Shown: positions 13,677-61,316 of the stretch, piece by piece | Position numbering within the stretch: position 1 is the stretch's first letter | Layout: every line of letters starts with the position of its first letter | From: a virus | DNA length: 64,000 nt | Direction: 5' to 3' (one strand) | IMG/VR virus record: IMGVR_UViG_3300045988_042432 | Position numbers and translations under genes: made by a program | Notes under the pieces: model-generated | What the model was told of the DNA's origin: nothing | The model's input: only the letters and a program-made list of their open reading frames with translations | Database searches by the model: none

Positions 13677-13965
13677 TACAACTCTCTAATCCGTTATATT
13701 GTTTATATCCTAGGAAATAATGTGTGTCGCCTAATCTTCTATCTCTTAATTCCTGTCTAAGAAATTTAAGATACGCTACTTCACCACCCTCAAACGATAT
13801 AATAAGTGGCTTGTCTATATTATTCATGCCAAGTGTTAACTTATAACCCCTATGTGTCCCCTCGGCAGTTTGTAGCTCTTCTAGCTTTAATTTAGCCACA
13901 TATTCTTTATGATAAATCTGTTTGAATAAATCTCTGATTGCTACTTCTAATTCTTGTAGGGTCAT
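13654..13965 (-). CDS. hypothetical protein
   Basis: 103-aa ORF between the terminase and portal genes; overlaps both. Confidence 0.5.
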   Translation of the reverse strand: MTLQELEVAIRDLFKQIYHKEYVAKLKLEELQTAEGTHRGYKLTLGMNNIDKPLIISFEGGEVAYLKFLRQELRDRRLGDTHYFLGYKQYNGLESCNECTEQE

Positions 13966-16183
13966 CGTATTGTGTAGGCCATAAATTAAACTTAGGTACT
14001 ATCTGTTGTTTCTCTGGAATAACTCCTTTATGTCTAATTCCTCTTTCGTCAACCCAATAACCGAAAGGTCTTAGTTTGTTATTAGGACTGTCCATTTCTT
14101 TAGGAACTACCCCCATTAATTCCTCGTCTCCTAGTTCGCACATACCCCATGCAGCTATAATATCAAACTTACGTTTATTCTCATAACTGTATTTAATTGC
14201 TTCTTCTAGAATTTCTTCAAACCATATATTATGACAATAATCTTCTATATGTTGAGCTATTAAATCTAATTGATGCCTAATTACTACTTCAGTAGCAGGA
14301 GCTCCGAATTGTTTACTACGACCTCCTTGTATGTCAGATTGAGTAGCTCTAGGTCTTCTCATCAAATGTCTATTCTCTTTATGTTTCTCTCTAAAGAATT
14401 GCAGAGTAGACATTCTAGTAGATTCAAGAACAGCCTGACAATCGTAATACTGCAATATCTTAAGACATGTCATATGTGCTTCACGTAAAGTCTTAGGTCT
14501 GTCCCTATAATAGCACACTATTTTAGGTTCATCTAACCCATAAGCTCTCTTTTTAACTACTACACAGAAATCAGAAGGGTCTTGAGTCTTATCAGAAGTG
14601 TCTTCACCACCCATATCAATACCGTCAATACCAGCAACATATAAATTTCTAGGTACAGCTCCATGTTCTCCTCTAATCGGATGTTCAAGTATCTTAACCT
14701 TACCTTTAGGATTACTAACAAATCTTACACTATCAATTGCTTCCTCTGTGTGCTGGTTGTTAGTAAAATTATACTCTAACTGGCCTACATCAATATGTGG
14801 TCCCAGTTTATGTAATTTAATATTAGCAAGTTGCTCACTTAACAATACAGTATTAAACTGATTATCTCCTTCAAGAGCCAAAGCATCATCAGGAGTAAAA
14901 CAGAACTCTGCACATGCAATTAAATGCTCCTTCGGGTTAGCTAGTAGAGCTTCTCTTTGGTCTAAATAGAACTTCTTAGCCTTCGCAGTATTAGTAACTC
15001 CTCTATCGTCTACATATCCATTTGCTGCTACGAATGTATAGGCAGGTATGAAGAATGAGGTAAAAGCATAAGACCCGTCTTTAGTATGGTTATGTTTATA
15101 AGGTAAGAAATTATATCCAGCTGGATTATAAAACATCTTACTAAGTCCGTCAAGTGCAGGTCCCTGGTCTCCACCTGTTCCCCACACAAATCTAGTTCCA
15201 AACTTATTACCTAGAATTTCTACAAGAGCTGTACTCTGTAAGTAAGTCTTTACTAGGATTGGGTTAGAACCAGATTCTTCAAAGAACAATCTATCCACAC
15301 GGTCTCCACGGAGTTTACGAGGAACATCTACTACGAAACCAATAATGTCTGACATGAATCCAAATTCTTCTCTGTCTTTAGTAAGAAGAGAAGCTCTCTT
15401 ATGCATATCAGAATTATACTTCTGTCTTAGATGTCTCATGCCGCCTTCTGTATCAGCATTTAAATATTCAAGCTGTTCCCAGCATTTACGAAGCACGTCA
15501 CTAACGAATTTCTCGGTAAATGCTACATATACTGTATGTGAACCTCTAACAGTTGTATATAACCTAACTCCTAAAGATGCTGCAATTTCAGAGAATCCGA
15601 CTCCACGAGCTTTAAGGGCGCACACATCCTTCTTCAACTTCTCACACATTTCTATGTAATGGAAGTACTCATACTGCTTACTAAAGAATGAAGGGAATGT
15701 AGTTTCACGACCGGTACCAGCTTGAGACACATCGGTGTTCTTTAGTCTATAATAATTAAGGAAGAAGTAATTATCACCTGTGATTCTATACCCATGTGAT
15801 TCATATCCTTGATTACATCTTCTATGTTCTTCAGTCCAGAAGTCATTATACTTCTTAGTTCCTTTAGGATAGGCACAGTATTTACCGTCTCTTAATTTAA
15901 TCTGTCTAGCTTCAGTGAACCACTCTGGATTAAAATCTAATCCTCTTTCTTCATCCACTGGTCGATATCCAGTCAGCTCATAAGATAGAGTAGGGTCGAA
16001 ATGCTTAATCTCAGTATCTAATGTTACATCCCATACAATGTTAGACGTACTAACTGATTTATCTTCTATAATAGGGTCTACGTATGGAATAGCCTCTATC
16101 AATTCTGGTTCTACTCTTTGTATTAACTCTTGAACTGTTTCTGGAACTTCGACTTTCTTCTTAGGTCTACCACGTCCAGCCAT
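13907..16183 (-). CDS. terL: terminase large subunit
   Basis: 758-aa ORF with an ATPase-like segment ...LKARGVGFSEIAA... and a later acidic nuclease-type segment ...LYVAGIDGIDMGGEDTSD.... Size and position next to the portal-sized gene also fit. Confidence 0.7.
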   Translation of the reverse strand: MAGRGRPKKKVEVPETVQELIQRVEPELIEAIPYVDPIIEDKSVSTSNIVWDVTLDTEIKHFDPTLSYELTGYRPVDEERGLDFNPEWFTEARQIKLRDGKYCAYPKGTKKYNDFWTEEHRRCNQGYESHGYRITGDNYFFLNYYRLKNTDVSQAGTGRETTFPSFFSKQYEYFHYIEMCEKLKKDVCALKARGVGFSEIAASLGVRLYTTVRGSHTVYVAFTEKFVSDVLRKCWEQLEYLNADTEGGMRHLRQKYNSDMHKRASLLTKDREEFGFMSDIIGFVVDVPRKLRGDRVDRLFFEESGSNPILVKTYLQSTALVEILGNKFGTRFVWGTGGDQGPALDGLSKMFYNPAGYNFLPYKHNHTKDGSYAFTSFFIPAYTFVAANGYVDDRGVTNTAKAKKFYLDQREALLANPKEHLIACAEFCFTPDDALALEGDNQFNTVLLSEQLANIKLHKLGPHIDVGQLEYNFTNNQHTEEAIDSVRFVSNPKGKVKILEHPIRGEHGAVPRNLYVAGIDGIDMGGEDTSDKTQDPSDFCVVVKKRAYGLDEPKIVCYYRDRPKTLREAHMTCLKILQYYDCQAVLESTRMSTLQFFREKHKENRHLMRRPRATQSDIQGGRSKQFGAPATEVVIRHQLDLIAQHIEDYCHNIWFEEILEEAIKYSYENKRKFDIIAAWGMCELGDEELMGVVPKEMDSPNNKLRPFGYWVDERGIRHKGVIPEKQQIVPKFNLWPTQYDDPTRIRSSNQRFIQTDLS

Positions 16184-20821: not shown

Positions 20822-21493
20822 ATGAAGAAAGAAGAAAGATTGCAACAGCAATGTGACGTATGTGGGAGGTTGCTAGACAAGAATATAAGCAACTTCAGAA
20901 AGTATTCACGCAAGACAAACGGCTTAAACTTTCACACTACATGTAGGGATTGTGAAGACCGAATCAAATTGAATACCGAATGGAAAGATGGGAAGCTCTT
21001 ATGCCACATATGTGGAGAATATAAAGAGCCTAGTGAGTTTACTTATGCAGGGGCTAATAAATACACTTTACGTCAGAATAAGGAGTGTAGGTGCAATTCC
21101 TGTAAACTAGAACAAAGGAAAGCTGCTATAGCTACTTATGATAACGACGTTAAACTAGAGAAGGTTTTACAAGCACGTTGGCTTGCAGCTAAATCCAGAG
21201 CTATAGACAAATCTATACCTTTCACTATTACTAAAGAAGATTTACTAACCGTATGGAAGGCACAAAATGGCAAGTGTGCAATTTCTGGATTAGACATGAC
21301 TTATGAATTAGGAGAAGGTCGAATCTATACGAATGTTAGCATTGACCAGATAATGCCCTCAAAAGGTTATACTATAGATAATATACAATTAGTATGTATG
21401 GCAGTTAATCAACTTAAGTCAGATTTAGATATGGATACTATTTTAATTCTGTGTTCTGCAATAGTTGATAATGCCGCTAAATGGAAGCATTAA
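20822..21493 (+). CDS. Cys-rich HNH/EndoVII-type nuclease-like protein
   Basis: 223-aa ORF with several CxxC pairs and a C-terminal CAISGL...SIDQIMPSKGYTIDNIQLVCMAVNQLK, as in phage proteins annotated as HNH. Confidence 0.5.
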   Translation: MKKEERLQQQCDVCGRLLDKNISNFRKYSRKTNGLNFHTTCRDCEDRIKLNTEWKDGKLLCHICGEYKEPSEFTYAGANKYTLRQNKECRCNSCKLEQRKAAIATYDNDVKLEKVLQARWLAAKSRAIDKSIPFTITKEDLLTVWKAQNGKCAISGLDMTYELGEGRIYTNVSIDQIMPSKGYTIDNIQLVCMAVNQLKSDLDMDTILILCSAIVDNAAKWKH

Positions 21494-21495
21494 CT

Positions 21496-21861
21496 ATGAA
21501 ATTTAAGTACGACAAATCTAAAGGATTGCTATTCTTTATCAATCCGTTACTTCCGGTAAAAGGATATTCATTTATGAATATTTGTGCTATTATGTTTACT
21601 AGAAGTGAGGATTATATAAAGAGAATGAGTCAAGCTACAGTTACACATGAGAAGACTCACACGAAACAGATATTAGAAATGGGAATAGTATTCTTCTATT
21701 TATGGTATGTAATAGAGTGGTTTATTAAATTACTAGCTAGTGGCAATGCTCACACTGCCTATAGAAACATATCATTTGAAAGAGAAGCTAGATACGCGGC
21801 TGAACATCTTGAATACGAGAGGAAGACTTTCAGCTATGGCTGGTTTAAGTGGTTATTATGA
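21496..21861 (+). CDS. membrane protein with HExxH motif (putative zinc metallopeptidase-like)
   Basis: VTHEKTHTKQ...FEREA plus a hydrophobic helix. Start moved to the ATG just after the upstream stop. Confidence 0.5.
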   Translation: MKFKYDKSKGLLFFINPLLPVKGYSFMNICAIMFTRSEDYIKRMSQATVTHEKTHTKQILEMGIVFFYLWYVIEWFIKLLASGNAHTAYRNISFEREARYAAEHLEYERKTFSYGWFKWLL

Positions 21862-21916
21862 GAATCTCAACTAAAACAGATACAAACTAACGTAGAATTA
21901 TTAAACAATAACAATC

Positions 21917-22307
21917 ATGACTTTAATTCAAAATGAAGACAACAAATGCCCTACCACTAAACAGGTGAATGATGCACTCGAGTCTATGGGGGGGGGTTCA
22001 GACCCTGGTTTTAACAACATATAATTTAATTAACACAGATAGAAGTAGTCCCTTAGAAGTAAACAGTTCAGACCAGGCGGTGATGGATACTGTAAAGTCT
22101 AATGCGGAGAAAAATATTCCATTTCAATTACTGTACTATGGAGTAATTAGTGGAACTAGTTCAGTACAATTACTTCCAGTATCACTATATGGTATACCGT
22201 TAGCTAATGTGTTCACATTATACGTAAATCAAAGTGGTTTACAGCACTTTAGCCTTAACAAAGGCTCCAATCAAAAGTGGACTGCTTCTACACTTAGTAA
22301 TTCTTAA
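21917..22307 (+). CDS. G-tract family member P1, frame-broken at G9
   Basis: ATG 21917 gives MTLIQNEDNKCPTTKQVNDALESMGGG and then stops. The long frame 21969..22307 continues only if the tract is 8 or 11 G. Confidence 0.6.
21988..21996 (+). repeat. homopolymer G9
   Basis: Read directly: ATGGGGGGGGGTTCAG. Confidence 0.95.
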
Positions 22308-22338
22308 CATTTAAGAATTAAAGTACATTAATCGCAGT

Positions 22339-22542
22339 ATGAGAAATTTTATATTTGACGTCTGGGTTTGGTCTAAAGCCAAACACTCCAGACTACTTAA
22401 GCAAATAAGGGTAAAGGCACTATCGTTTCCTTCAGACATGTTCTGTTTGAACGAAGCTGCTAAAGATGCAGATGTATCACCCTACATGAAATCAGATGAA
22501 TTTGAAGTAACAATTGGTAATTTAAGAGAATATCAAGAATAA
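22339..22542 (+). CDS. hypothetical protein
   Basis: 67-aa ORF; its stop overlaps the ATG of P2 (TAATG). Confidence 0.55.
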   Translation: MRNFIFDVWVWSKAKHSRLLKQIRVKALSFPSDMFCLNEAAKDADVSPYMKSDEFEVTIGNLREYQE

Positions 22543-23037
22543 TGGAAAGTACTAATGAATTAGTAACAGCAGCTGAAGCTAGAGCAGAAGGCTTAAGCTT
22601 AGACGGAGTTGCGAACAATAGATGTATCACTAAGCAACAATTCAACGATAACCTACCGTCGGGGGGGGGGTATTGCTGACGCTATAGATTTATTAAACGG
22701 TTCACTAAGCGGTAGCACCCTAATATTCTTTAATAACACTACTGTAGACACTACAATGGGTATATCAATCATAAATATGTATGGTCAAAGCACATCGGCT
22801 ACACCAGATATTCCTGCTTCATCTATGGTGGTATACCCTATAGCAGGTGCTATAAGAAATGTAGCTTTGTTTGGCAATAGTGTGATTGGAAGTAATACTT
22901 ACGTAGCATTCCTATTAAATAATGCAAAGAATATGAATTACTATTCTAATTATGAAACAGATAAACTTATTATAGGAACTAATCAGAATTTGCCAGTACA
23001 GGGTCTACTTGCCGTTATGTGTATAAACAATACATAG
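22542..23037 (+). CDS. G-tract family member P2, frame-broken at G10
   Basis: ATG 22542 gives MESTNELVTAAEARAEGLSLDGVANNRCITKQQFNDNLPSGGGYC-stop. The frame 22609..23037 continues only if the tract is 9 or 12 G. Confidence 0.6.
22661..22670 (+). repeat. homopolymer G10
   Basis: Read directly: CCGTCGGGGGGGGGGTATTGC. Confidence 0.95.
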
Positions 23038-23049
23038 CAAGTATTTAAA

Positions 23050-23592
23050 ATGACAAATAAAATTGCAACAGAACAATATTTAATTAATTTAGCTGGTGGA
23101 GGTACAAATACTCCAACCAAGTGTGCCACTAGAGATAGAGTAGAGTTCTTCGGACTTGAAACTAACGATAATTACGCTAATAATCAGTTAGTTAAGGAAG
23201 AGGATATACAGTTGTCAACATTTCAGTATGACTTCAATATACATGTTTCAATAACTAACTCTGGGCTTACGTCTAAATCCTATGACTTTGTAGCAGATGT
23301 TTACATAGATGGAGTTCCAGATGGGTTTATAACAATTCCTAGGTCTGGAACTCTAGACTATCAAGGGGCAACTTTCTTTGACAGAAACTTCCACTTTAAT
23401 TTACCAACTGATTTAACTAGTGTCTCTAAATTATTGTTCACTGGATATTTCAGTACATACAGGGTGACTGTAGATGCGGATAGTGTAACAAATAATGCAG
23501 TATGCCAATCTGGGGTAACTACTGAAATACCAATAAATCAGGCATATATAGGAGGTGACACAGCTAATATTTCTATAAATGTAATTATATAA
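23050..23592 (+). CDS. G-tract family member P3 (intact, no homopolymer)
   Basis: 180-aa ORF MTNKIATEQYLINLAGGGTNTPTKCATRD...NNQLVKEEDI. The GGG is encoded by GGTGGAGGT at 23095-23103. Confidence 0.75.
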   Translation: MTNKIATEQYLINLAGGGTNTPTKCATRDRVEFFGLETNDNYANNQLVKEEDIQLSTFQYDFNIHVSITNSGLTSKSYDFVADVYIDGVPDGFITIPRSGTLDYQGATFFDRNFHFNLPTDLTSVSKLLFTGYFSTYRVTVDADSVTNNAVCQSGVTTEIPINQAYIGGDTANISINVII

Positions 23593-23834
23593 TGAAGTTT
23601 GTAACATTCTTAAAGCAAGTATTCACATCCCACTCTGGCATATCATCTAAGAGACTCTGCGGAGTAGTAGGGTGGTTTGTCTGCTTGGGAGTGTTAATAT
23701 ACTGTGCAATAAACGTAATTCAAGCCCCATTAATGATAGACACAGTCCTGTTGTGTTGTATGGGATTGCTTGGCATAGATTCAGTAACAGGAATATGGAA
23801 GAGATTCACCAATAACGATAAATCGAATAAATAA
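23592..23834 (+). CDS. small two-TM membrane protein (holin-like; speculative)
   Basis: 80-aa ORF with two hydrophobic helices; start and stop overlap its neighbours. Confidence 0.5.
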   Translation: MKFVTFLKQVFTSHSGISSKRLCGVVGWFVCLGVLIYCAINVIQAPLMIDTVLLCCMGLLGIDSVTGIWKRFTNNDKSNK

Positions 23835-26800
23835 TGAAAGTAATACCTAAACTACAACAAGGAAACACCATAGAGTCCGATAATACTAAAGTAGTTAGGC
23901 CAGAAATTCATGAACCTATTAAAGCTAAACCTAGACAGTATTCCATTGTAGATTTAGGTGGAGAACCTTCTAATGATACCAGGTCAGCTGCTGAAAGAAA
24001 TAGAGACTATTGGCATCCTATTAAGGGAGCTAAAGCCAGATTCAAGGCTTCTATGTCCAATGAGACTAATCCTCTAGTTGGAATAGAAAGAACTATACTT
24101 CCTTCAGCAGCTGGTGCTGCATTAGTAACAACTCCAGCCGCTGTTGTAGGAGGAGCTTTAGGTAATATGACTGTGGATAAGCTTACCGGGGGCTGGGGTA
24201 ATTGGTTAGAAGATAAGACTGGCATTCCGTCTGAAATTGGAATTTATACTAATCCAGGAGCTTGGTATGGTGGTGCTAAAGGATATAAGATTGGAAAGAA
24301 CAAGCTAATAACTAAATCAATTAAAGGTGATGCTGACCTAGCTTGGAATCCTATTAACAAGAATCATTGGATATTTAATAAGGAAGCAAGGACTCCTTCT
24401 AATATAGCAATGGCAACAGCTAACAGAATTACTCCATTTCTATCTAAGGTAGAGAAATTACCATTAAAAGTGGCTGCTTATAAAGCTGCCAAGAGAACTA
24501 ACGGTAATGCATCAGTAAGTTTGCAAGATATAAAAACAATGCCAGCCGACTACACAGGTTCTTCAATATTAGGTGGAGGAAATTTAGAAGGTAGGAATCT
24601 ATTAGCTAAATATATATTTGATGAGAATCCAGTAGTTAAAAGAATGTTCTTTAATAAAGCTACTAGTAATATCAAACCTATTAGCCGTAATGAAGCAAGG
24701 AGAGGATTTAGTCATGGGGATAGATATGAGCAGCTTTATCCTGGAGTTCATAACAGAAGATACGAAATGAGTGCAGTAGTACCCTCTGGTAGACCTCTTA
24801 AGTTTGAGAATGTTACAAAGTTTACTGATTATGCTGGAAAGAATCCAATCGGCAAGGTTGTTGGTAAGGAGACTGAACCAGTAATGCGTATGGGAGATAA
24901 AGAGTTTATGACCTTTAGGCAGCCAGGAACCGATTATATAGGTCCTATTGATGACGTTGCTGGACACTTGGTTAAGTTTCAAATGAATAAGGGTAAGCTT
25001 AGACAGACTTCTCAAGATATGTGGAAATTTAATCCTGCTGACTATGCTAAGAGGTGGAATGATTCTCCTAATACTGCTAACCAAGTTAGGCTTATTAAAC
25101 AAGCTGCATTAATGGATAAAGTAGGTCGTCCTTTCATATTGCAGCAATCTAATCCTATATGGATTGAAGGTAAGTCTGTTAGAAATCCGGAATTGGTAAC
25201 TATGGCACATGGTGGAAGATTTGATTTTAAGAAGTCCCCTCTGCTAAAGAAACAAGAAGAGATTAACGGTAAGAGGGATATGCGTAAGAAGTTCATCAAA
25301 TCAAGTCGCCCAACCTATAAGAAGCGAATCAAGAAAGCTCAACAAGGAATGAAGTTCGTAAGTTATAATCCAGTAAGTAATCCTACAATAGATTACACTG
25401 ATATTACTAATCCTATTAATCCATTTAGTGAGTATAATTATAATACAACTTACGATAAACCAGAAGCTTTAGTAGTACCAGTAAGAGATACTGAAGAAAC
25501 TGATGTAGTAGCTAATAATCCTACAGTAGAGCCAGTAATTAATAAGCCAGTAGCTAGTAATCCTGTTACCAATAAACCTGTTACTGCCAACTCAACTTGG
25601 AAGAGTCCATATACTAACAGAAGACAATGGTCTACAGAACTTATTAATGCCTATAAGAAGGCAGGTATTACTAATGATAATGCAATTAGAATGCTATTAG
25701 CACAAGACGCATTAGAATCTAGTTGGGGTAAGTCTGCACAAGGTAAGTACAACTTTGGCAATTTAACTACTGGTAGTTCATGGAAAGGTGATTATGTAAC
25801 TGGTAATGATAAAAATGCTAGAGGTGAAGCTATTAAGCAGAAGTTTAGGTCTTATAATTCTATGGATGAGTATGCAGCAGATAAGATACAATTCTTAAAG
25901 AGACTATATGACTTTGATGAGAATGATGATATTAATAAGTTTGTAGCTAAGCTTACTGGTTCTAATAAAGGTAAGAGAAGATATGCAGAAGCTAAGGAGT
26001 ATGCCAATTCATTAAGAGGCGTGTATAATAGTTTCAAAGCAGGTGGTATTATTAAATATCAAGAACCAGCACAACCTATAGCTAGAAGAGATGCTATTAA
26101 GGATTACAGACCTGAAATTCCACTTAGTCCTATTAAGCAACCAGTTAAACCTTATATGCCAACTCAACAGCCAGTGCTATCTTCTGATAATAGAACTGGT
26201 TGGGAGAAAGAAGTATCTAGGCAAATCAAAGCTGATAAAGCTAAGAATGATAAACTTTATGGTAATCAGCATACTTGGAACTGGTCTGCACCATTTACCA
26301 ATGCTAGAATTACTAAAGATAATGCTAGTGCTATATTTGATTTTGATAAGTCAGCAGCTATGAGTACATTTGCAATTGGACAGGGAATTGCTAGTCCTGT
26401 TACTACTGCAACATCTATAGCAGGTTCACTAGTTGGAGCTGGTATAGGTAATAAGGTAGCAGGAGAGAAAGGTGCTCTAGTCGGTGGATTTGTTGGTGGA
26501 ATGGTTAATCCTAGGTTTAGATTTGGGAAGAGTAGTTCTACTAAGAGACGGGAACATGGTAATGTAGCAGATAACGTTAATTTACATAGTAAGATGAATT
26601 TCGATGATTATGACCAAATTGTTAATGCAATAGATAATGAGGAGGAGTTATATAGACTTTATCTACAGAATGAAACTGTAGCTAAGAGAATACGTGAAGT
26701 TTCTCCGTCTTATGTAAAGGAGGTTAATAACTTTATTAAGACTAAAATCAAGAAGAGGTTTGGTAAGCCAACTAATGGTAATTATCAGGCTGCCAATAGA

Positions 26801-27430
26801 GTAGCAGATGATGCTCCAGAAGTTACATTTGGAGGAGTTCCGTTTAAGTATCAAGAGAATGTCTACAATATAGAACCAGGTAAACCTATACCCCATTTGG
26901 AGTTTGTAGCACATGAGAATAGCCATGGAATAGACAGGGCTGTGAGTAGATTACTAAGTACTGATTATCTAAGGAATTTATTGAATCCAAGTGACAAACT
27001 TCCGTTTAACAAATGGATTAATGAAGTTAAGAAGAGTAAGGCTGTAGTTGATTATATAAAGAGAAGTAGAAATTTAGATGTAAACAACCCAGCAGATTAC
27101 TCTAAAATAGAGAAGGAAGTTTATAAATACTTCTCTGACCCTACAGAGATTAAGGCATACTTCAGTAGGATTCCATTTGAGAAGTATAAGAAGTCAGTAG
27201 ATAGGAGCTTTGACGGGAAGGTTATTAATAATCCAGTATCAAAGGATATATTCCAAATCACTGATGCAGATATACTAGATGATGTTAGATTACAACTTAT
27301 AGCTTCTATCTATAAACGAAACGACATGGCGTCTTATGAAGCATTAAAGAGTAATCTTACTAATAAATTATGGGGAGTGTCTGCACTAGGTATTCCTGCA
27401 ATCAACACATTAATTAATGGATATGAATGA
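23834..27430 (+). CDS. large virion-associated cell-wall hydrolase (FlgJ/glucosaminidase-like domain) with C-terminal HExxH
   Basis: 1198-aa ORF with LLAQDALESSWGKSAQGKYNFGNL...KFRSYNSMDEYAADKIQFL (glucosaminidase pattern) and a later FVAHENSHGID. Confidence 0.7.
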   Translation: MKVIPKLQQGNTIESDNTKVVRPEIHEPIKAKPRQYSIVDLGGEPSNDTRSAAERNRDYWHPIKGAKARFKASMSNETNPLVGIERTILPSAAGAALVTTPAAVVGGALGNMTVDKLTGGWGNWLEDKTGIPSEIGIYTNPGAWYGGAKGYKIGKNKLITKSIKGDADLAWNPINKNHWIFNKEARTPSNIAMATANRITPFLSKVEKLPLKVAAYKAAKRTNGNASVSLQDIKTMPADYTGSSILGGGNLEGRNLLAKYIFDENPVVKRMFFNKATSNIKPISRNEARRGFSHGDRYEQLYPGVHNRRYEMSAVVPSGRPLKFENVTKFTDYAGKNPIGKVVGKETEPVMRMGDKEFMTFRQPGTDYIGPIDDVAGHLVKFQMNKGKLRQTSQDMWKFNPADYAKRWNDSPNTANQVRLIKQAALMDKVGRPFILQQSNPIWIEGKSVRNPELVTMAHGGRFDFKKSPLLKKQEEINGKRDMRKKFIKSSRPTYKKRIKKAQQGMKFVSYNPVSNPTIDYTDITNPINPFSEYNYNTTYDKPEALVVPVRDTEETDVVANNPTVEPVINKPVASNPVTNKPVTANSTWKSPYTNRRQWSTELINAYKKAGITNDNAIRMLLAQDALESSWGKSAQGKYNFGNLTTGSSWKGDYVTGNDKNARGEAIKQKFRSYNSMDEYAADKIQFLKRLYDFDENDDINKFVAKLTGSNKGKRRYAEAKEYANSLRGVYNSFKAGGIIKYQEPAQPIARRDAIKDYRPEIPLSPIKQPVKPYMPTQQPVLSSDNRTGWEKEVSRQIKADKAKNDKLYGNQHTWNWSAPFTNARITKDNASAIFDFDKSAAMSTFAIGQGIASPVTTATSIAGSLVGAGIGNKVAGEKGALVGGFVGGMVNPRFRFGKSSSTKRREHGNVADNVNLHSKMNFDDYDQIVNAIDNEEELYRLYLQNETVAKRIREVSPSYVKEVNNFIKTKIKKRFGKPTNGNYQAANRVADDAPEVTFGGVPFKYQENVYNIEPGKPIPHLEFVAHENSHGIDRAVSRLLSTDYLRNLLNPSDKLPFNKWINEVKKSKAVVDYIKRSRNLDVNNPADYSKIEKEVYKYFSDPTEIKAYFSRIPFEKYKKSVDRSFDGKVINNPVSKDIFQITDADILDDVRLQLIASIYKRNDMASYEALKSNLTNKLWGVSALGIPAINTLINGYE

Positions 27431-28074: not shown

Positions 28075-28335
28075 ATGACTAATGAACAATTAAATCAATA
28101 CTATAGTAAGGATGCAGATAAGAAGCAGTGTTGGGTAAGTAAAGACCATAACTGTCCATTAAAGGAACAATGTAATGGACTTGTTAAGCCAGAATGTAAA
28201 GAGCATATAGACAATGAAGAAGCCTGCCATGTTGTTGATAAGATGATAGAATGGTATTACCAAGTGGAAGAACCTGAATTTCTAAAGTTCTATAATTGTC
28301 ACTTAGAGATGTTAGAGAGACATGGAAGGAATTAG
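28075..28335 (+). CDS. Cys-rich small protein
   Basis: 86-aa ORF; ends in TAG. Confidence 0.55.
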   Translation: MTNEQLNQYYSKDADKKQCWVSKDHNCPLKEQCNGLVKPECKEHIDNEEACHVVDKMIEWYYQVEEPEFLKFYNCHLEMLERHGRN

Positions 28336-28616
28336 TTATTCCTTCCTCTGTTAGCAGGGATATTTAATGGACGTAAATTATTAAGCTTATTAGTACCACC
28401 TTCAGAAATTGGTTTAATATGGTCTACTTCCCAACCCCAAGGATGTTCAGCTTTACCATAAGCATCACGATGTATATATTCACCACTGGCATCTTTGCGA
28501 AGTCCGTCCTGTACTAAAGTGGCTTTACTGAATATTATATCCAGTTCTTCTTCTGTCCATTTAGGTCTTACTTCCATAATCTTAGATATTAGAATTAATA
28601 ACTGCAAATATAGCAA
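28332..28616 (-). CDS. HNH endonuclease
   Basis: 94-aa ORF with WEVDHIKPISEGGTNKLNNLRPLNIPANRGRNN. Confidence 0.75.
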   Translation of the reverse strand: MLYLQLLILISKIMEVRPKWTEEELDIIFSKATLVQDGLRKDASGEYIHRDAYGKAEHPWGWEVDHIKPISEGGTNKLNNLRPLNIPANRGRNN

Positions 28617-29058: not shown

Positions 29059-29071
29059 AGAAATAAATACA

Positions 29072-30155
29072 ATGAGTAGAATAGTAACACAAAGTAAATT
29101 AAACGAATTAACAGGTAAGAATATAGATTACGGGAGGGGGGGGGTATTGTCCTCACTACCAAACCATAGTTAGTCTCTGGGGTAGCGTAGTTGCGTCTAG
29201 TAACTACCAGCCAAATCAATTAGTTAAAGAAGAAGATATAGTTGTAGACAAAGACCTATTCCTTATTAATGCGGAGACAGGTAGTTTATACTTTGCTGGC
29301 GGTGGTACCTATGCTCAAATTCCAGCTATAGACGGCCATGAGGATTTTATATACATAGCTGGAGGAGGTGAAGCAATTGGAGCATTGTCTATGCTTGGAG
29401 GATTGTATGTAGTTAATCAGTCTACCAAACAGTGGGAATTAAAATACAAAGATACTGTAAGAGCTTATGGTTATGCTCACTTGGCTAGGTTCTCTACTGG
29501 CTGGGTATTTTATAAGGGAGCAGGAGGAGACGGTAAGAACTATGTTATTATAGTGTATGATGACGGTACAGTAAAGGAGCGTAGTGTTGTAGGCCCAGTC
29601 AGTAGCATATCAACTGGGCCTTATGATTACTGCTGTGTTGGGGCATCATATCAGGGAGGAGCTAGAATATATACCTTCTTGGCTACATCTGTACCAGATT
29701 CTCTTACTTATTATACTCCAGGAATGTTTACACCAAGTGCAGTAATACAAGGGTTTCATTCTTCGCCAAGAAGTGTAGTATATAGCACTACAAGTAATTA
29801 TACATACGTTAGTACTAACCCAACTGGAACTCAATGGACTGCTGCAACCACTAGACCACAACTAACAGGTTTGACTAAAGGATTGTATGTAAATGAAGCT
29901 GGGACTAATACATTTATGCTTATAGGAAATAATATGAAGAGTGTGTCTACAGATAGGGGTAATAATTGGACTACATCTACACTAGGTGAATATACTCTTA
30001 CTGATTTAATATATGTAGATTCAAATTGGTATGCAATTGGTTCGAATGGAACTAAAAGACTCCTATTGCAGAATACAGCTTCTACATTTGACCAAAGTAA
30101 TAAAATACTTGACTTGCCTGACTATTCTAGACAAGTAATTAAAATTAATACATAA
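29072..30155 (+). CDS. G-tract family member P4, frame-broken at G9; C-terminal beta-propeller-like domain with Asp-box
   Basis: ATG 29072 gives MSRIVTQSKLNELTGKNIDYGRGG... and then stops. The other frame is open from the tract to 30155 and contains NYQPNQLVKEEDI (family motif) and STDRGNNWT. It is in frame with 8 or 11 G. Confidence 0.6.
29136..29144 (+). repeat. homopolymer G9
   Basis: Read directly: CGGGAGGGGGGGGGTATTGT. Confidence 0.95.
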
Positions 30156-30170
30156 CAGGTTGATATAATA

Positions 30171-30215
30171 AAGCCCGAGCCTAGTAATTAAACTAAGTTC
30201 GGGCTTTGTTGTTTA
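30171..30215. terminator. hairpin between convergent genes
   Basis: AGCCCGA...TCGGGCT stem followed by TTGTTGTTT. Confidence 0.45.
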
Positions 30216-30337
30216 TAATAAGATTCCGTCTCGGTAAGTGAGAATACGTCAGAGCACACTGTCGTAGACCACCAAGACGAAGATGTAAAAACTATCTTAG
30301 GCTTTGTGCTTAGCATCTACTGGCTGGTATCAATTTA

Positions 30338-31192
30338 TTATATAGCTGTAGTGTCTATAGAGAATGTCACGTACCACCAATATAAATCATCTGCATTATC
30401 TATCCCAACTTCCAGTAGCTGTGACCAAGTTACTCCTTTGCATTTCCGTAAGTCCTTAAGTACATTCAGCACATCTTCCATGGGATTAATGATACATCCT
30501 TCAGCCCCATTTGTTCCATTGCTAATTGTCATATAAACTTGTAATTTAGATTCACCTCTAGGAACAACGGCAAATGTTTCATAATGGTCTTTTATGTTCA
30601 AAATAATATCTTCTATATGTTCTAGAACATTGGCTTGTAAGGGTTCGCCAGTCAGGTTACACATTCTTAAGCCTTTGGGAGTTCTTTCATAATATAAATT
30701 CTTTAAAGCTCCAAATGTATCATACCAAGTTCCAGAGTTAAACAGTTTAATTACTTGTTTACGTTCCTCCTCATTATAAGGACTCCACCTATTCCCAAAT
30801 CCTCTACTGGTTCTATCATTATATGTTTCTGTTCCCGATTGTACTATATAGTCAATAATAGTGTCCAAATTAGATTCTATTATTTCAGTAGCATAGTCTA
30901 AGGGATACTTTCCGTCAACTACTTTAGTAGTATCAGTATCAAGAATGGGATATTCTTCATGCGAGAACAATAGCTCTCTAGTTTCGGAAGTAGAAAATAT
31001 GCAGGCATTTGTGTCAAATAGAAAGCTGTCAGCCTGATGTTTTACCCCTGTTAGACAGTCAATACAGAATTGTTTTATCTTATCTCTTTGTGCCTTTAAT
31101 GATGATGCTATATCATTACAATTGAACTGTAAATTTATAGATTGCATATCAAAGTAAAGGATTAGCCATTTATTATACTCCTCATTTATCAT
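30338..31192 (-). CDS. hypothetical protein
   Basis: 284-aa ORF. Confidence 0.65.
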   Translation of the reverse strand: MINEEYNKWLILYFDMQSINLQFNCNDIASSLKAQRDKIKQFCIDCLTGVKHQADSFLFDTNACIFSTSETRELLFSHEEYPILDTDTTKVVDGKYPLDYATEIIESNLDTIIDYIVQSGTETYNDRTSRGFGNRWSPYNEEERKQVIKLFNSGTWYDTFGALKNLYYERTPKGLRMCNLTGEPLQANVLEHIEDIILNIKDHYETFAVVPRGESKLQVYMTISNGTNGAEGCIINPMEDVLNVLKDLRKCKGVTWSQLLEVGIDNADDLYWWYVTFSIDTTAI

Positions 31193-31198
31193 AGTTCA

Positions 31199-31480
31199 TC
31201 AATCAAAACTTCCAAAACTAGCTACTAAGCTCATTGGTATGTGTATTGTATCTTTTACTCTGCGAGTACCGTCCTCATCACAATGATTCTCAATACCTCT
31301 TCCCAATATTATTGATTTGTCGTCCATATATGCCAAGTAGCCCACTGTGGTTATCAAATTCTCATCCGGACATTCTCCTAGTATATGTCCTCCACGCCAT
31401 ACGTATCTATCGTCCCAATGAACCCACATAGGTTCTCCTACTTCATATCCTAGTTTCTGTACATTTAATTTATTATCCAT
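31199..31480 (-). CDS. hypothetical protein
   Basis: 93-aa ORF. Confidence 0.6.
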   Translation of the reverse strand: MDNKLNVQKLGYEVGEPMWVHWDDRYVWRGGHILGECPDENLITTVGYLAYMDDKSIILGRGIENHCDEDGTRRVKDTIHIPMSLVASFGSFD

Positions 31481-31481
31481 A

Positions 31482-31937
31482 TTAACTACCTACAAGTATT
31501 TTAACATTACCAGTCTCTATATCGAGAGTAGCTTTCTCAAGCCATAAATCTTCTATACGATGTCCCCATATTCCATACTTACCTGGATTCTCCTTCTCTT
31601 CTTCGTAAATCCTTCTATATGCAAGGGTTATTTCATTTATTAAATCATTCAAATTGCGGCATTTAGCAGTGAATGTATACGGATTCTTTAATGGATAACT
31701 AATAGTTATATTTACTGTATGGTCTTTAAAGTAGTCAGCAGCGTTGCTAAATAGACTTACTGCACAGTTAATAGAGTATTTATGAATCTTTATATTTACT
31801 CCTTTAGGAAGCAACTCTTGTTCTTTCTCTATTGTGAATTTAGATGGAAGTCTGTTTATCACTTCCTGTACATCGAAGTCCTTGTCCCTATACACACTTA
31901 TCCCAGATTCTTTATGCTCCACATATATACAATACAC
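31482..31937 (-). CDS. hypothetical protein
   Basis: 151-aa ORF. Confidence 0.6.
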   Translation of the reverse strand: MYCIYVEHKESGISVYRDKDFDVQEVINRLPSKFTIEKEQELLPKGVNIKIHKYSINCAVSLFSNAADYFKDHTVNITISYPLKNPYTFTAKCRNLNDLINEITLAYRRIYEEEKENPGKYGIWGHRIEDLWLEKATLDIETGNVKILVGS

Positions 31938-31977
31938 TAGTCTATACTGACTATCTCCTCCACTTCATCAACATTAA

Positions 31978-32187
31978 TTAATCGCTTTCCCATTCTTCTT
32001 CTAATGTATTATATAATTTAATAAAATCTTCTCCTTTATATTCACATACACATTCATTATCCTTATTAAAGATAGTAAGCATGTGCATATCCTTAGATTG
32101 TCCATTGTCTACATAAGAATACATCCCGTGTACCAATACGTATTCGGGATGTTTCTCATTCCAGTTATTTACAAGTTCCTTCATCAC
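31978..32187 (-). CDS. hypothetical protein
   Basis: 69-aa ORF. Confidence 0.55.
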   Translation of the reverse strand: MMKELVNNWNEKHPEYVLVHGMYSYVDNGQSKDMHMLTIFNKDNECVCEYKGEDFIKLYNTLEEEWESD

Positions 32188-32425
32188 TAAGTGTTATTCC
32201 ATTACTAGCATAAGATATAAATGTACCTGTGTCATATGGTCTCCAGCCACTATTATCTCTACGTATAGTAGTTGTCTGTCCTACGTTAAATTGTGGAATC
32301 TCTACTATGTTATCAAGAACTCTAAATAAGTCCTCTATTGATAAGTTTGGAAGTATCTGATGTAAATTCTCTAATGTCTTTCTAACGTCAATCATAATAG
32401 TATATTTTAGCAAATTGTACATCAC
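32165..32425 (-). CDS. hypothetical protein
   Basis: 86-aa ORF. Confidence 0.55.
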   Translation of the reverse strand: MMYNLLKYTIMIDVRKTLENLHQILPNLSIEDLFRVLDNIVEIPQFNVGQTTTIRRDNSGWRPYDTGTFISYASNGITLSDEGTCK

Positions 32426-32627
32426 CTATACTAATATTAGGCAGTAGTACCTTGTGTAGTTCTGTAGATTCAAATGTATCTTTATATTCCCTAGGAACTA
32501 ACAGAGTATCAACATGATGTCCTCTAGATATTCTAGCTAGATAGGAGATTTTACTGTCATCAAAGTCTGTAAGTTCCAACATAATGGCATTATGATGCCT
32601 AGGACAATTTCCACTAAGTATTATCAT
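32388..32627 (-). CDS. hypothetical protein
   Basis: 79-aa ORF. Confidence 0.55.
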   Translation of the reverse strand: MIILSGNCPRHHNAIMLELTDFDDSKISYLARISRGHHVDTLLVPREYKDTFESTELHKVLLPNISIGDVQFAKIYYYD

Positions 32628-32629
32628 AA

Positions 32630-32788
32630 TTACTTCTCCTGTAGTAAGATTCTCATCTCTTCCTTCCAGTTCTTATACCACTGTTCATTAATAAGGTCTT
32701 CTGATTCAATTAATTCAATCAAATCCTTAGTGCCATTATGAATTTGGCTACATAAATACTGTGCTAATTGGTTCTTTAATTCATCCAT
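32630..32788 (-). CDS. small hypothetical protein (52 aa, not in the ORF track)
   Basis: Own translation: MDELKNQLAQYLCSQIHNGTKDLIELIESEDLINEQWYKNWKEEMRILLQEK. It fills the gap between its neighbours exactly. Confidence 0.45.
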   Translation of the reverse strand: MDELKNQLAQYLCSQIHNGTKDLIELIESEDLINEQWYKNWKEEMRILLQEK

Positions 32789-32793
32789 AATTA

Positions 32794-32991
32794 TTAGTCT
32801 TTAGTTTTAACATAAAGTTGGCAATGGCAAGTCCCTTCTTCCATTTCCCTAAACTCTTTACACATACATACTGTATCTTCATCTCTTACTAAAGAGCATG
32901 GACAATACTTCTTACCATACTTCTCTTTATTCCTTTTAAGTCCTGCTAGGACTGTTTCCTTTACTTCTTTATTATCAGTTACTTTAATCAT
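32794..32991 (-). CDS. small Cys-rich protein, ferredoxin-thioredoxin-reductase catalytic-chain-like motif (tentative)
   Basis: 65-aa ORF with CPC-x9-CMC-x11-CHC spacing. Confidence 0.4.
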   Translation of the reverse strand: MIKVTDNKEVKETVLAGLKRNKEKYGKKYCPCSLVRDEDTVCMCKEFREMEEGTCHCQLYVKTKD

Positions 32992-33635
32992 TGCGCTGAC
33001 GCTGTATACAGTTCTATGTTTAGGTCTATTTCCCCACCAGTAAATCTAAATACTCTACCAGAATTATTCATTTTGACCCACCTTCCAGATGAAGGGAATG
33101 TTACTCCTTCTGCCCAATTCTCAGATTGAGAATCTACTGCTAATGTAATTTGAGACACTTGCCTAAGCATCACGTATCCCTCAAAACGTATCCAAACAGG
33201 TGTATTATATGGGTCTTGGTTAGAAGGTGCTAATTTCTCTAAGTAATATTTAAGAGGATTTGCTAAAGTCTTAGTGTACGTTCGTTCTCCTTGCTCTAAT
33301 CTTGGAGTAATTGCAAAGTACATAGTATTGTCAGAATACGTAAACGGCTCTCCATTCACTGAACTCTCATTAACAAATGAGAAACGTACTCTAAATTGCT
33401 GTATATTATTAATTGGCATATCCTGCCAACCATAATGAAGGATTACATTTGGAGCAGTTATAGCTGCCTCTATACCTTCTAACTCCACTAACTGATTATC
33501 AGTATAACTAAATCCACTTTTAATCTGACATCCTAATTCAAGTGCTCTAGCTTTAGTACAGCACTTATTATCAATTACCGAGAGAGTCCCCCCCCCCATA
33601 GTCTTAGCTTCTAATTCTGTTGCTATTTTACTCAT
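32988..33635 (-). CDS. G-tract family member P5 (in frame through G10)
   Basis: 215-aa ORF MSKIATELEAKTMGGGTLSVIDNKCCTKARALELG...DNQLVELEGIE. Met-Gly-Gly-Gly is encoded by ATG+G9, seen as C10 on the plus strand. Confidence 0.75.
   Translation of the reverse strand: MSKIATELEAKTMGGGTLSVIDNKCCTKARALELGCQIKSGFSYTDNQLVELEGIEAAITAPNVILHYGWQDMPINNIQQFRVRFSFVNESSVNGEPFTYSDNTMYFAITPRLEQGERTYTKTLANPLKYYLEKLAPSNQDPYNTPVWIRFEGYVMLRQVSQITLAVDSQSENWAEGVTFPSSGRWVKMNNSGRVFRFTGGEIDLNIELYTASAQ
33588..33597 (-). repeat. homopolymer G10 (C10 on the plus strand)
   Basis: Read directly: GAGAGTCCCCCCCCCCATAG. Confidence 0.95.
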
Positions 33636-33864
33636 GGTTCTTGTATCGTTCTGTAATATTAATTAAATCCTTGTTGTCATGCAGTAACTCTAAGAAAGCC
33701 TTGTCTACTGCTATATCAAATGCAGTATTAGTAATGATTGGTTCTTTATGCACTCTCTCAATCTCTTCTCTAATCATTTGTTCAGATAATTGAGTGTATA
33801 ATCGTCTGGTATAATCATTATACCAAGGCTCTTTAAATGTTACTATAATTTCTTCTCCTGTCAT
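33628..33864 (-). CDS. hypothetical protein
   Basis: The track ORF starts at a TTG. The ATG at 33864 overlaps the stop of the upstream mini-ORF (ATGA). Confidence 0.55.
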   Translation of the reverse strand: MTGEEIIVTFKEPWYNDYTRRLYTQLSEQMIREEIERVHKEPIITNTAFDIAVDKAFLELLHDNKDLINITERYKNHE

Positions 33865-53624: not shown

Positions 53625-53696
53625 GGGGCGGTAGCTCAATGGTAGAGCGCAGGTCTGAAGAACCTGGCGTTGGGGGTTCGATTCCCTTCTGCCCCA
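53625..53696 (+). tRNA. tRNA-Phe (GAA)
   Basis: Acceptor GGGGCGG/CTGCCCC, anticodon arm CAGGT-CTGAAGA-ACCTG. Confidence 0.85.
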
Positions 53697-53701
53697 CCTA
53701 T

Positions 53702-54172
53702 ATGGGAACTTTAATAAGTAAATTTAGTGATGAAGAGTTTAGTAATATAGTTAAGGAATCTGAAACAGTTTCCGAAATAGCTTCTAAGCTCGGCTATAAG
53801 TCAAAGGGAGGTGGAGTTACTAGACTGATTAAAGATAAGATAGAAGAGCTGGGTATAGACATATCTCATTTTAATAGATATGCTAAAAATCATTCGCCTG
53901 AAAGGTATAAGTCCTTAGAAGATATTCTAGTAGAAGATTCTACTTATACCAACAACACTTCTTTAAAGAAGAGGCTATTGGAATCTAATTTACTAGAATA
54001 TAAGTGTAGTATATGTGGTATTAATGAGTGGCAAGGAAAGCCGTTATCATTACAACTGGACCATATTAATGGGAATAACAAGGATAATAGAATAGAAAAT
54101 CTTAGATTGCTATGTCCTAATTGCCATTCCCAAACTGATACGTTTTCAGGTAAAAACGCATCACATTATTAA
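53702..54172 (+). CDS. HNH homing-type endonuclease
   Basis: The track ORF begins inside the tRNA. The ATG at 53702 gives MGTLISKF...CSICGINEWQGKPLSLQLDHINGNNKDNRIENLRLLCPNCHSQ. Confidence 0.8.
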   Translation: MGTLISKFSDEEFSNIVKESETVSEIASKLGYKSKGGGVTRLIKDKIEELGIDISHFNRYAKNHSPERYKSLEDILVEDSTYTNNTSLKKRLLESNLLEYKCSICGINEWQGKPLSLQLDHINGNNKDNRIENLRLLCPNCHSQTDTFSGKNASHY

Positions 54173-60566: not shown

Positions 60567-61316
60567 ATGGGTAAGAAATTGACCGAGGAGGAAGTAATAT
60601 CTAGGTTTAGAGATGTTCATGGAGACAAATACGACTATAGTAAAGTCGTCTATGTAGATATGAACTCTAAAGTAACCATTATATGTCCGGAGCATGGAGA
60701 GTTTGAACAAACTCCCGCCAAACATATTAATAGGAAGCATGGATGCCCTAAATGCAAGGGTACTAAACTAAGAAACCACTTCTCTTCTACTACCGAAGAA
60801 TTTGTAAGGAAGGCTGTTAGCAAACATGGCGACAGATATAACTACTCTAAAGTAGAGTATGTTAATTCTAGAACTAAGGTTTGTATCATGTGCAAAAAGC
60901 ACGGGGAATTTTACGTAACTCCAGATAACCATCTGAAAGGACGTGGATGTCCTAGATGCAAACAGTCTCGTGGAGAGAACATGATTGAAGCATGGTTACA
61001 ACGAAGTAATATTCGTTATGAACGACAATTCGTATTGATTAACCAGGAGATAGACAGGCCCTCACATAGATTAGTTATTGATTTCTTTGTAAAGCATAAA
61101 GGACGTCAGTATTTCATAGAGTACGATGGGGAACAGCACTTCAGCCCAACCTATAGATTCTATGATAGCATGGCTGATTTCCAAATGCAACAACACAGGG
61201 ACCAGCTACTTAATGATTTCTGTGATAGACATAAGGATGCAGTTACCTTGATAAGGGTGAATTGTAGACAATGTGAAGCAGAGATAACTCATACATTAAG
61301 TAGCACAATAGCATAA
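60567..61316 (+). CDS. putative homing endonuclease (Vsr/PD-(D/E)xK-like nuclease with duplicated zinc-ribbon modules)
   Basis: Two repeats of GD(K/R)Y(D/N)YSKV.Y......KV.I.C..HGEF...P..H...GCP(K/R)C, then VIDFFV...IEYDGEQHF. Confidence 0.6.
   Translation: MGKKLTEEEVISRFRDVHGDKYDYSKVVYVDMNSKVTIICPEHGEFEQTPAKHINRKHGCPKCKGTKLRNHFSSTTEEFVRKAVSKHGDRYNYSKVEYVNSRTKVCIMCKKHGEFYVTPDNHLKGRGCPRCKQSRGENMIEAWLQRSNIRYERQFVLINQEIDRPSHRLVIDFFVKHKGRQYFIEYDGEQHFSPTYRFYDSMADFQMQQHRDQLLNDFCDRHKDAVTLIRVNCRQCEAEITHTLSSTIA

Follow-up and report, generated by a model that had tools for sequence, protein, structure and literature searches.

Introduction

Homopolymer phase variation is classical in bacteria, as exemplified by the contingency loci of Neisseria, Haemophilus, Campylobacter, and Helicobacter. 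In phages, hypermutable polyG tracts are known from the Campylobacter Fletchervirus phages (Sorensen et al. 2021, Cell Rep 35:109214, as described in PMC10877375 and PMC12823448); in these phages, poly-G runs lie inside several genes, tract length toggles expression, phage populations are mixed, and there are multiple alternative receptor-binding proteins. Where a 2025 Nature paper on gut phages turns to phage polyG tracts, it cites only Sorensen et al. 2021 (PMC12823448). Here, we describe a comparable tract in a 64,000-nucleotide stretch of viral DNA (IMG/VR record IMGVR_UViG_3300045988_042432; the whole stretch is called the window below). The gene under study, T3, is divided by a run of nine Gs (G9); its tract-bearing paralogues are named T1, T2, and T4, and its tract-free paralogue P3. 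The T3 tract is probably a hypermutable contingency switch, through which slipped-strand phase variation would govern a protein that has an exchangeable C-terminal domain and would serve as an accessory part of the virion or in host recognition.

The Fletchervirus phages are T4-like Eucampyvirinae, whereas the present lineage is Crassvirales-like and from the human gut, and the proteins concerned are unrelated: a tblastn search of 50,697 GenBank phages with the fused T3 and T4 proteins gave no match. Unlike those of Fletchervirus, the tracts described here all occupy one homologous Gly-linker position in the shared module of a paralogous family, and the switch is a prediction from sequence. 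Campylobacter itself uses poly-G phase variation; the Bacteroidota, to which the host presumably belongs, are not known to do so. With the bacterial contingency loci, T3 and its tract-bearing paralogues share a homopolymer in the 5′ part of the open reading frame (ORF), reversible +/-1 frameshifts, the independent switching of several surface-related genes, and interrupted, "locked" alleles; the replicon here is, however, a lytic-type phage genome, in which the phasotype would be set in phage replication and sorted at each infection. The invertible G segment of Mu and C segment of P1, and the diversity-generating retroelements (DGRs) of BPP-1, Hankyphage, and Zeta/Epsilon crAss-like phages, likewise place alternative or diversified host-recognition C-terminal domains on a constant N-terminus, but the T3 family would offer an ON/OFF choice among ready-made domains rather than sequence diversification, and it comes with no invertase, long inverted repeats, or reverse transcriptase with template and variable repeats (TR-VR). 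Full-text searches of the literature turned up nothing on homopolymer or poly-G switching in phages of Bacteroides or of the crAss-like group, and analyses of Zeta/Epsilon crAss-like genomes treat DGRs, recoding, and polymerase swaps with no mention of homopolymers or frameshifts (PMC12386605, PMC11054128). The mechanism itself is known, from bacteria and from Campylobacter phages; the phage order and the proteins are new, and what is distinctive is the placing of the tract at one homologous linker of a shared adaptor in domain-shuffling paralogues.

The two reading frames of T3

The upstream T3 frame, from the ATG at 29072, translates as MSRIVTQSKLNELTGKNIDYGRGGVLSSLPNHS and ends with a stop at 29173, 33 amino acids (aa) in all; the G9 run (29136-29144) begins at codon 22, the frame reads MSRIVTQSKLNELTGKNIDYGRGG across the run, and the stop follows nine codons after it. 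The part 5′ of the tract is kept in relatives as MS[KR]IVTQ[SD]KLNELTG..IDYGK. The +1 frame is open from the G run up to a stop at 30153-30155, and both NYQPNQLVKEEDI and STDRGNNWT are found in it. The 21 codons of the T3 head that precede the tract are joined to the 336-codon downstream frame by a run of either eight or eleven Gs: rebuilding the gene in silico gave an ORF of 360 aa with G8 and of 361 aa with G11, whereas G7, G9, G10, and G12 gave ORFs of only 31-34 aa. A preliminary description, made from the window sequence, had placed the G9 run in T3, read the +1 frame as open to 30155, and proposed that one G fewer or two more would fuse the two parts; the ORF check of the window and the in silico alleles agree with it on all of these points. 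It had also pointed to the TATTG that follows the tract in both T3 and T2 (its P2). The match is real, but it comprises 5 nt read in different frames (GGT ATT GCT in T2, TAT TGT in T3), and the shared context was rejected as meaningful.

Tract length and coding capacity in relatives

Relatives of T3 were gathered both via the protein (13 IMG/VR loci) and via a DNA pattern just 3′ of the tract (41 metagenome loci), the latter independently of tract state. Tract lengths are assembly consensus values, and 49 T3 loci from human-gut metagenomes were scorable. Between near-identical flanks, the T3 tract varied from 7 to 11 G, with 21 loci ON (in frame) and 28 OFF. In the commonest context, GGGAA-Gn-TATTGT, alleles with n = 7 or 10 are ON, and those with n = 8, 9 (the modal length), or 11 are OFF. 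Interrupted tracts also occur, both in frame, or locked (G6AG3 at five loci, G8TG, and G9T, with proteins reading KGEGYC and KGGEYC), and out of frame (G6TGG and G7AG). The glycine linker tolerates either two or three residues, as KGGYC and KGGGYC proteins both occur, and in-frame length changes are therefore harmless. The sister tracts vary likewise between nearly identical flanks (ranges in Table 1), and six distinct ON/OFF combinations were present among the ten genomes that carry all four tract-bearing genes. Several contigs stop exactly within a tract, and one (L050) begins at the tract with an Illumina adapter; such breaks hint at either mixed populations or difficult homopolymers.

The downstream ORF of about 336 codons was intact in 25 of the 26 OFF alleles that had enough downstream sequence, and variable sites were most frequent at the third codon position (102, against 79 at the first and 54 at the second). 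Because the OFF alleles keep an open ORF and the variation is skewed to third positions, the T3 pattern is that predicted for a reversible switch, not for decay. A 5′ run that toggles the frame, length polymorphism with both ON and OFF alleles, and OFF alleles that are otherwise intact are the marks of a phase-variable gene, and all are seen in T3. The fused T3 protein has 339 homologues, mostly 355-366 aa long and 85-97% identical, which read through the linker as ..DYGKGGGYCPHYQ..; the contigs that bear them come from human-gut metagenomes and reach about 170-190 kb. The preliminary description had staked its reading on a tract that is not invariant and on a downstream frame that is coding in related genomes, and both hold. 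Two more distant T3 orthologues, P0123 (56% identity) and P0125 (44%), are continuous and have no long tract; their N-termini resemble those of P3 and T4 (MSNKIATE...TRCATKTKVEYYGL...YQDNQLVKEQDI). Dozens of 32-98-aa catalogue "proteins" (P0215-P0265, P0131-P0164) are stubs or fragments of family genes, and some of their clusters have tens of members.

Four tracts in one modular gene family

The window has a G+C content of 36.9% and contains just four G/C runs of more than five bases, each of them 9 or 10 long. The number of G/C runs by length is 15514 (length 1), 3212 (2), 446 (3), 68 (4), 6 (5), none (6-8), 2 (9), and 2 (10), a drop of about seven-fold per extra base over lengths 3, 4, and 5. 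Overlapping G8 matches numbered 10, where shuffles gave an expectation of 0.13, and GGG is the rarest glycine codon (7.3%). The tracts exceed chance, and the strongly bimodal run-length spectrum shows them to be real and selected. Every long run falls within the first 25-45 codons of a small paralogous gene, at the Gly-Gly-Gly of a shared N-terminal module of the form M[ST]xI[AV]T[EQ]...GGG...xC.T[KR]...G...Y..NQLV[KE].E[DG]I, the order of whose elements differs in T1 and T2. Five paralogues carry this module, and four of them have a G9-G10 tract; the family motif reads NNQLVKEEDI in P3 and DNQLVELEGI in T4, so that the family, including the motif shared with P3, is as the preliminary description had it. 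Of the four tract-bearing genes, only T4 is in frame in the window. P3 is predicted to be constitutive, i.e., fixed ON, because its Gly-Gly-Gly codons, GGTGGAGGT, are not slippery. A more distant form of the module occurs in P0255 and P0258 (MATGTNGIATEGEAKSKL..NKCCTKARA..YTDNQLVKYDDI, with Y.DNQLVKYDDI). A weak tblastn match to this form was seen in Dulem virus 41 from lemur gut (PP511520.1, E = 0.07), and the adaptor may reach beyond the present phage lineage. A profile search with the N-terminal module returned only fragments of 36-98 aa and no named relatives.

Several relatives are chimeras. In P0146, a T3 head is joined to a P3 body at NQLVKEEDI; P0168 and P0169 have the converse arrangement, a P3-type head joined to the T3 propeller at the same motif; and in P0149 the T3 head precedes a third, unrelated body. 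The five paralogues and these chimeras (P0146, P0149, P0168/P0169) thus display a conserved N-terminal anchor with an exchangeable C-terminal domain. An anchor with a swappable tip is typical of phage receptor-binding proteins, and this architecture suggests that the family proteins would be accessory or receptor-binding modules of the virion surface that dock via the shared N-terminal adaptor. We give a role of the T3 family in virion host recognition, in line with the switchable host-surface recognition put forward in the preliminary description, about an even chance.

Two contigs have a P3-head::T3-propeller chimera in the position of P3 (L056 10001-11056, L057 10001-11074), and the P3-T3 interval of about 6 kb, including the gene for a 1198-aa protein, is gone; this could be a deletion by recombination at the NQLVKEEDI repeat or an assembly mis-join. 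In L006, everything between the starts of T3 and T4 lies in reverse orientation to its flanks, and the T3 gene alone is inverted in L011 and L013 (cf. window 29066-33636); these differences in cassette orientation could reflect either evolutionary rearrangement or an assembly effect. An active inversion switch between the 5′ ends of the paralogues was rejected for want of adequate inverted repeats: between 20000 and 35000 there are no long, high-identity inverted repeats, the best being 43 nt at 74%. An invertible segment of the Mu G, P1 C, or shufflon type was rejected on the same ground and because no recombinase was found among the neighboring ORFs that were scanned, which are part of the total.

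Predicted fold of the T3 protein

The fused T3 protein was modeled with AlphaFold2 (AF2) from an alignment (A2) of near-identical sequences plus a divergent clade of 42-56% identity, giving a mean predicted local distance difference test (pLDDT) score of 87.2 and a predicted template modeling (pTM) score of 0.80. A first AF2 model, built from 30 near-identical sequences, had a pLDDT of 52.7 and Foldseek matches of template modeling (TM) score 0.2-0.3, and was not used. In the retained model, two short N-terminal helices are followed, from residue ~62 to the C-terminus, by about 26 strands, which form six or seven blades of four strands each. Foldseek searches of PDB and BFVD gave, among the matches listed, top matches that are all beta-propeller or repeat-blade proteins, with a best target-normalized TM of 0.64 and with Ycf48 (5OJR) at 0.61; other matches were to WD40 proteins and to phage proteins annotated "BNR repeat-like," "DUF6242," "short tail fiber," and "BNR repeat domain." The fold support that the preliminary description had asked for is therefore present, and the C-terminal domain of T3 is predicted by the model to be a beta-propeller.

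The preliminary description had also seen an Asp-box in STDRGNNWT, which is borne out at the level of motif and remote homology. Its residues S292, D294, G296, and W299 are invariant in 32 sequences, and T3 has this one canonical Asp-box plus degenerate ones (STNPTGTQW). An exhaustive HMMER scan of 1.84 billion representative proteins gave only 44 matches, nearly all of them T3 fragments; the exceptions were P0123, P0125, and P0159. The last is a 912-aa tail-fibre-like protein with eight repeats of 37-38 aa of the form AITYGNNTFVAVGSNGLISTSSDGTNWTTQTVGS and with SSDGTNWT Asp-boxes. T3 residues 246-357 align to its blades (library E = 5.9e-7, 37% identity over 82 aa), with the STDRGNNW of T3 set against SSDGTNWT. 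Pfam DUF6242 was found on the P0159 repeats, and in tblastn these repeats matched phage proteins annotated as baseplate wedge, PSII-assembly-factor (Ycf48)-like, and host-specificity. Pfam BNR (PF02012) gave no match to T3, and only 13.7-13.9 bits to P0123 and P0125, against a cut-off of 27. T3 thus resembles the Asp-box propellers (Ycf48, PDB 5OJR and 5OJ3, and the phage DUF6242/BNR tail-fibre and baseplate proteins) in fold (TM 0.5-0.64), in the SxDxGxxW hairpin, and in its blade homology to the DUF6242-bearing P0159, but differs from them in its single canonical Asp-box accompanied by degenerate ones, in a BNR score below the Pfam threshold, in having no sialidase or glycosidase signature, and in forming a tiny, lineage-specific family. 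The glycosidase-like function entertained in the preliminary description found no backing, as nothing points to a hydrolase: a sialidase or glycoside hydrolase was rejected on the basis of no Pfam family, no PDB sequence match, and no catalytic signature. The family profile matched no PDB sequence, even with E <= 10 allowed, and the GH74 xyloglucanase was, in Foldseek, a lone generic propeller match at TM 0.35-0.37.

Proposed mechanism and alternative explanations

In the proposed switch, the G tract lies within the Gly-Gly(-Gly) linker of the N-terminal module of ~56 aa, and slipped-strand mispairing in phage DNA replication would add or remove Gs, bringing the 336-codon frame into or out of register with the start codon. 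The G9 allele of the window would yield only the 33-aa stub, and G8 or G11 a protein of 360 or 361 aa; this ON protein would consist of a two-helix adaptor, the NQLVKEEDI junction, and a six- or seven-bladed beta-propeller with the invariant Asp-box. T1, T2, and T4 have like tracts at the same position of the module and P3 would be fixed ON, which would allow up to 16 expression states per population. We infer that switching occurs at a high rate within a population and that its purpose would be bet-hedging against variable host surfaces.

The G run might instead be a programmed slippery site, at which RNA polymerase stuttering or ribosomal frameshifting would yield full-length protein at a set ratio, with DNA variation being secondary. 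Runs of 9-10 are long enough for transcriptional slippage, according to general knowledge that comes mainly from A/T runs, and OFF is modal at three of the four tracts, which is odd if the protein is needed. Furthermore, unexplained frameshifts have been noted in Zeta-group crAss-like genes, suggesting unknown expression mechanisms (Yutin et al. 2021, PMC7886860). However, one would expect a fixed programmed site to hold one length, whereas that of T3 varies; more distant orthologues do without any tract, and 43% of alleles are plainly in frame. Since in-frame and locked, interrupted alleles are common and OFF alleles fall into both the +1 and the −1 class, transcriptional slippage is not the main cause of the pattern, and we regard recoding as an unlikely explanation, although slippage could add leakiness atop a switch at the DNA level. 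Sequencing or assembly error, by which a gene that is always in frame would acquire apparent frameshifts through homopolymer miscalls, is less likely still. Homopolymers of 9 or more are of course error-prone, and the contig breaks at tracts, with the adapter of L050, could be read in the same way, but the discrete lengths from 7 to 11 recur in about 50 independent assemblies from different studies, most alleles are OFF, unlike the outcome of consensus error, and no single bias would restore all frames, as T2 is mostly an in-frame G9 and T1 a G9 out of frame. Base-substituted alleles moreover represent real sequence evolution at the site, and the bimodal run-length spectrum shows that the tracts themselves are real and selected. 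Least probable of all, to the point of being nearly negligible, is that T3 is a pseudogene, a dispensable accessory gene being lost by frameshift. The window allele is indeed out of frame, the 44 matches of the very narrow family are mostly fragments, and the region is structurally plastic; nonetheless, all but one of the 26 OFF alleles hold the 336-codon ORF with no further lesions, 21 alleles are ON, protein identity is 85-97% with many invariant residues, and every frameshift falls at the tract, none outside it.

A different question is whether the same switch serves another function, the proteins being either decoration adhesins of the capsid or tail that bind mucus or epithelium, or non-virion factors for superinfection exclusion or anti-defence. 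Searches of Pfam, PHROGs, GenBank phages, and PDB gave no homology to any characterized receptor-binding protein, the genes lie among ORFs that do not look structural, and modular epithelium-binding adhesins are reported for gut phages (PMC13370021). Set against this are the conserved N-terminal adaptor with its swappable C-terminal domain, the homology of the blades to a tail-fibre-like protein and to phage baseplate and host-specificity proteins, and the position of the genes next to the terminase, portal, and tail-fibre block; we consider such a function possible but rather doubtful. Several observations do weigh against a phase-variable host-recognition protein. The immediate neighbors are not clearly structural (a nuclease, a protease-like ORF, a holin-like ORF, the 1198-aa glucosaminidase-domain protein, and an HNH endonuclease); Pfam and PHROGs scans gave no family for any of the five proteins, with only sub-threshold hints of CARDB and H_lectin for P3 and T4; megablast, like tblastn, against the 50,697 GenBank phages found no match for T3 or T4; and two scans of GTDB genome contigs for the host found nothing. 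The modal length is 9 at all four tracts regardless of frame, which is compatible with a mutational equilibrium and also with miscalling of a systematic kind, and an assembly consensus at G9-G10 can contain some error. Finally, G8 alleles reading ..GATTATGGGAA.. gain an in-frame ATG (TAT-GGG), as in the MGRGGYCPHYQ of P0070 and P0108, so that such "OFF" alleles may be short, lacking residues 1-20, rather than null; T3 of the window has TAC at the TAT position and no such start.

More tentatively, and with appreciable doubt on our part, the four switches may together constitute a "phasome" in a prevalent lineage of large crAss-like gut phages, in which interchangeable host-binding tips (a beta-propeller, beta-sandwich-like domains, and others) on a shared adaptor of ~56 aa each have their own poly-G toggle. 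If true, as many as 16 kinds of virion would come out of a single burst. Such bet-hedging on the phage side would mirror the phase-variable capsules and surface proteins of the Bacteroidales and could help explain long-term coexistence in the gut. The coexistence of crAss-like phages and Bacteroidales has so far been explained mainly by phase-variable host capsules and also by phage DGRs; a simple-repeat phasome would be a second, cheaper mechanism on the phage side. The poly-G strategy, which in the sources available is documented among phages only for those of Campylobacter, would then not be confined to hosts with poly-G variation of their own. Tract lengths can be read from metagenomes and would be a record of the accessory proteins in use. 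For annotation, the family genes are systematically called as fragments or missed, e.g., as the 33-aa stub, a 256-aa TTG ORF, and many catalogue "proteins" of 40-100 aa.

Genome context and neighboring genes

The large terminase subunit gene (13907-16183, minus strand) encodes a protein ~30% identical to those of crAss-like phages and identical (100%) to its counterpart in MT835470.1, a 117-kb partial genome from human faeces that carries no annotation. By megablast and tblastn, MT835470.1 is the sole GenBank phage record that covers T1-T2-P3, and across this block it is only 94-96% identical to the window (21800-23700 against 111936-113753); the family region is thus changing more quickly than the core of the genome. 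The tract alleles of MT835470.1 are G9 in T1 (OFF) and G9 in T2 (ON), as against G10 (OFF) for T2 in the window. A portal gene and tail-fibre genes lie upstream, and the family genes adjoin this terminase, portal, and tail-fibre block. The virus is, by sequence affinity, a putative Crassvirales-related human-gut phage, and it is this affinity that leads us to assume a Bacteroidota host. In its large genome (about 180 kb), its many homing endonucleases, and the standard genetic code used in the window, the phage recalls the Zeta crAss-like group, which is described as having the largest genomes (Yutin et al., PMC7886860). Table 1 lists the features of T3 and of its paralogues; the hairpin 3′ of T3 was spotted by eye and then confirmed by folding. 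Because this hairpin and its U-rich tail follow the T3 stop, T3 closes a transcription unit on the plus strand, toward which minus-strand genes converge.

Table 1. Positions in the window of T3, its parts, and the paralogous genes.
Feature	Coordinates	Strand	Remarks
T3 5′ part, start codon to last base before tract	29072..29135	+	Encodes MSRIVTQSKLNELTGKNIDYG(R), first half of the family N-terminal module
G9 homopolymer, putative switch	29136..29144	+	Out of frame in window; G8 or G11 in frame
OFF-state product of window allele	29072..29173	+	33-aa ORF including stop; ORF translation
Downstream T3 frame, 336 codons + stop	29145..30155	+	Second half of N-terminal module (YCPHYQTIVSLWG...NQLVKEEDI), then predicted beta-propeller of ~300 aa
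NQLVKEEDI junction of adaptor module and C-terminal domain	29214..29240	+	Domain swaps among paralogues here
Asp-box STDRGNNW	29946..29969	+	Fits SxDxGxxW; read directly in sequence
Stable hairpin + U-rich tail, terminator-like	30170..30215	+	Between convergent genes; -27.2 kcal/mol, z = -6.5
T1, G9 tract 21988-21996	21917..22307	+	OFF in window; G8 or G11 gives 129-130 aa; 7-10 G in relatives
T2, G10 tract 22661-22670	22542..23037	+	OFF in window; G9 or G12 gives 164-165 aa; 6-10 G in relatives
P3, 180 aa	23050..23592	+	Same N-terminal module; Gly-Gly-Gly encoded by non-slippery GGTGGAGGT
T4, 215 aa, G10 tract (C10 on plus strand, 33588-33597)	32988..33635	-	ON in window; 7-11 G in relatives

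Between the G-tract genes, and after an ORF of 80 aa that is holin-like or encodes a membrane protein (23592-23834), lies the gene for the 1198-aa protein (23834-27430, plus strand). This protein has a central glucosaminidase (peptidoglycan hydrolase) domain at residues 607-735 and may be either ejected or a lysin associated with the virion. A 355-aa adenylosuccinate-synthetase-like gene (61321-62388, plus strand) matched PurZ-type phrog_1211 (E = 6e-45) and Pfam Adenylsucc_synt (E = 5e-33), a hint, with the DatZ/MazZ partners not searched for, that adenine may be replaced by 2-aminoadenine (a Z-genome). The window also contains at least four HNH/homing-endonuclease-like ORFs (20822-21493, 28332-28616 on the minus strand, 53639-54172, and 60567-61316), one of which is directly upstream of the PurZ-like gene.

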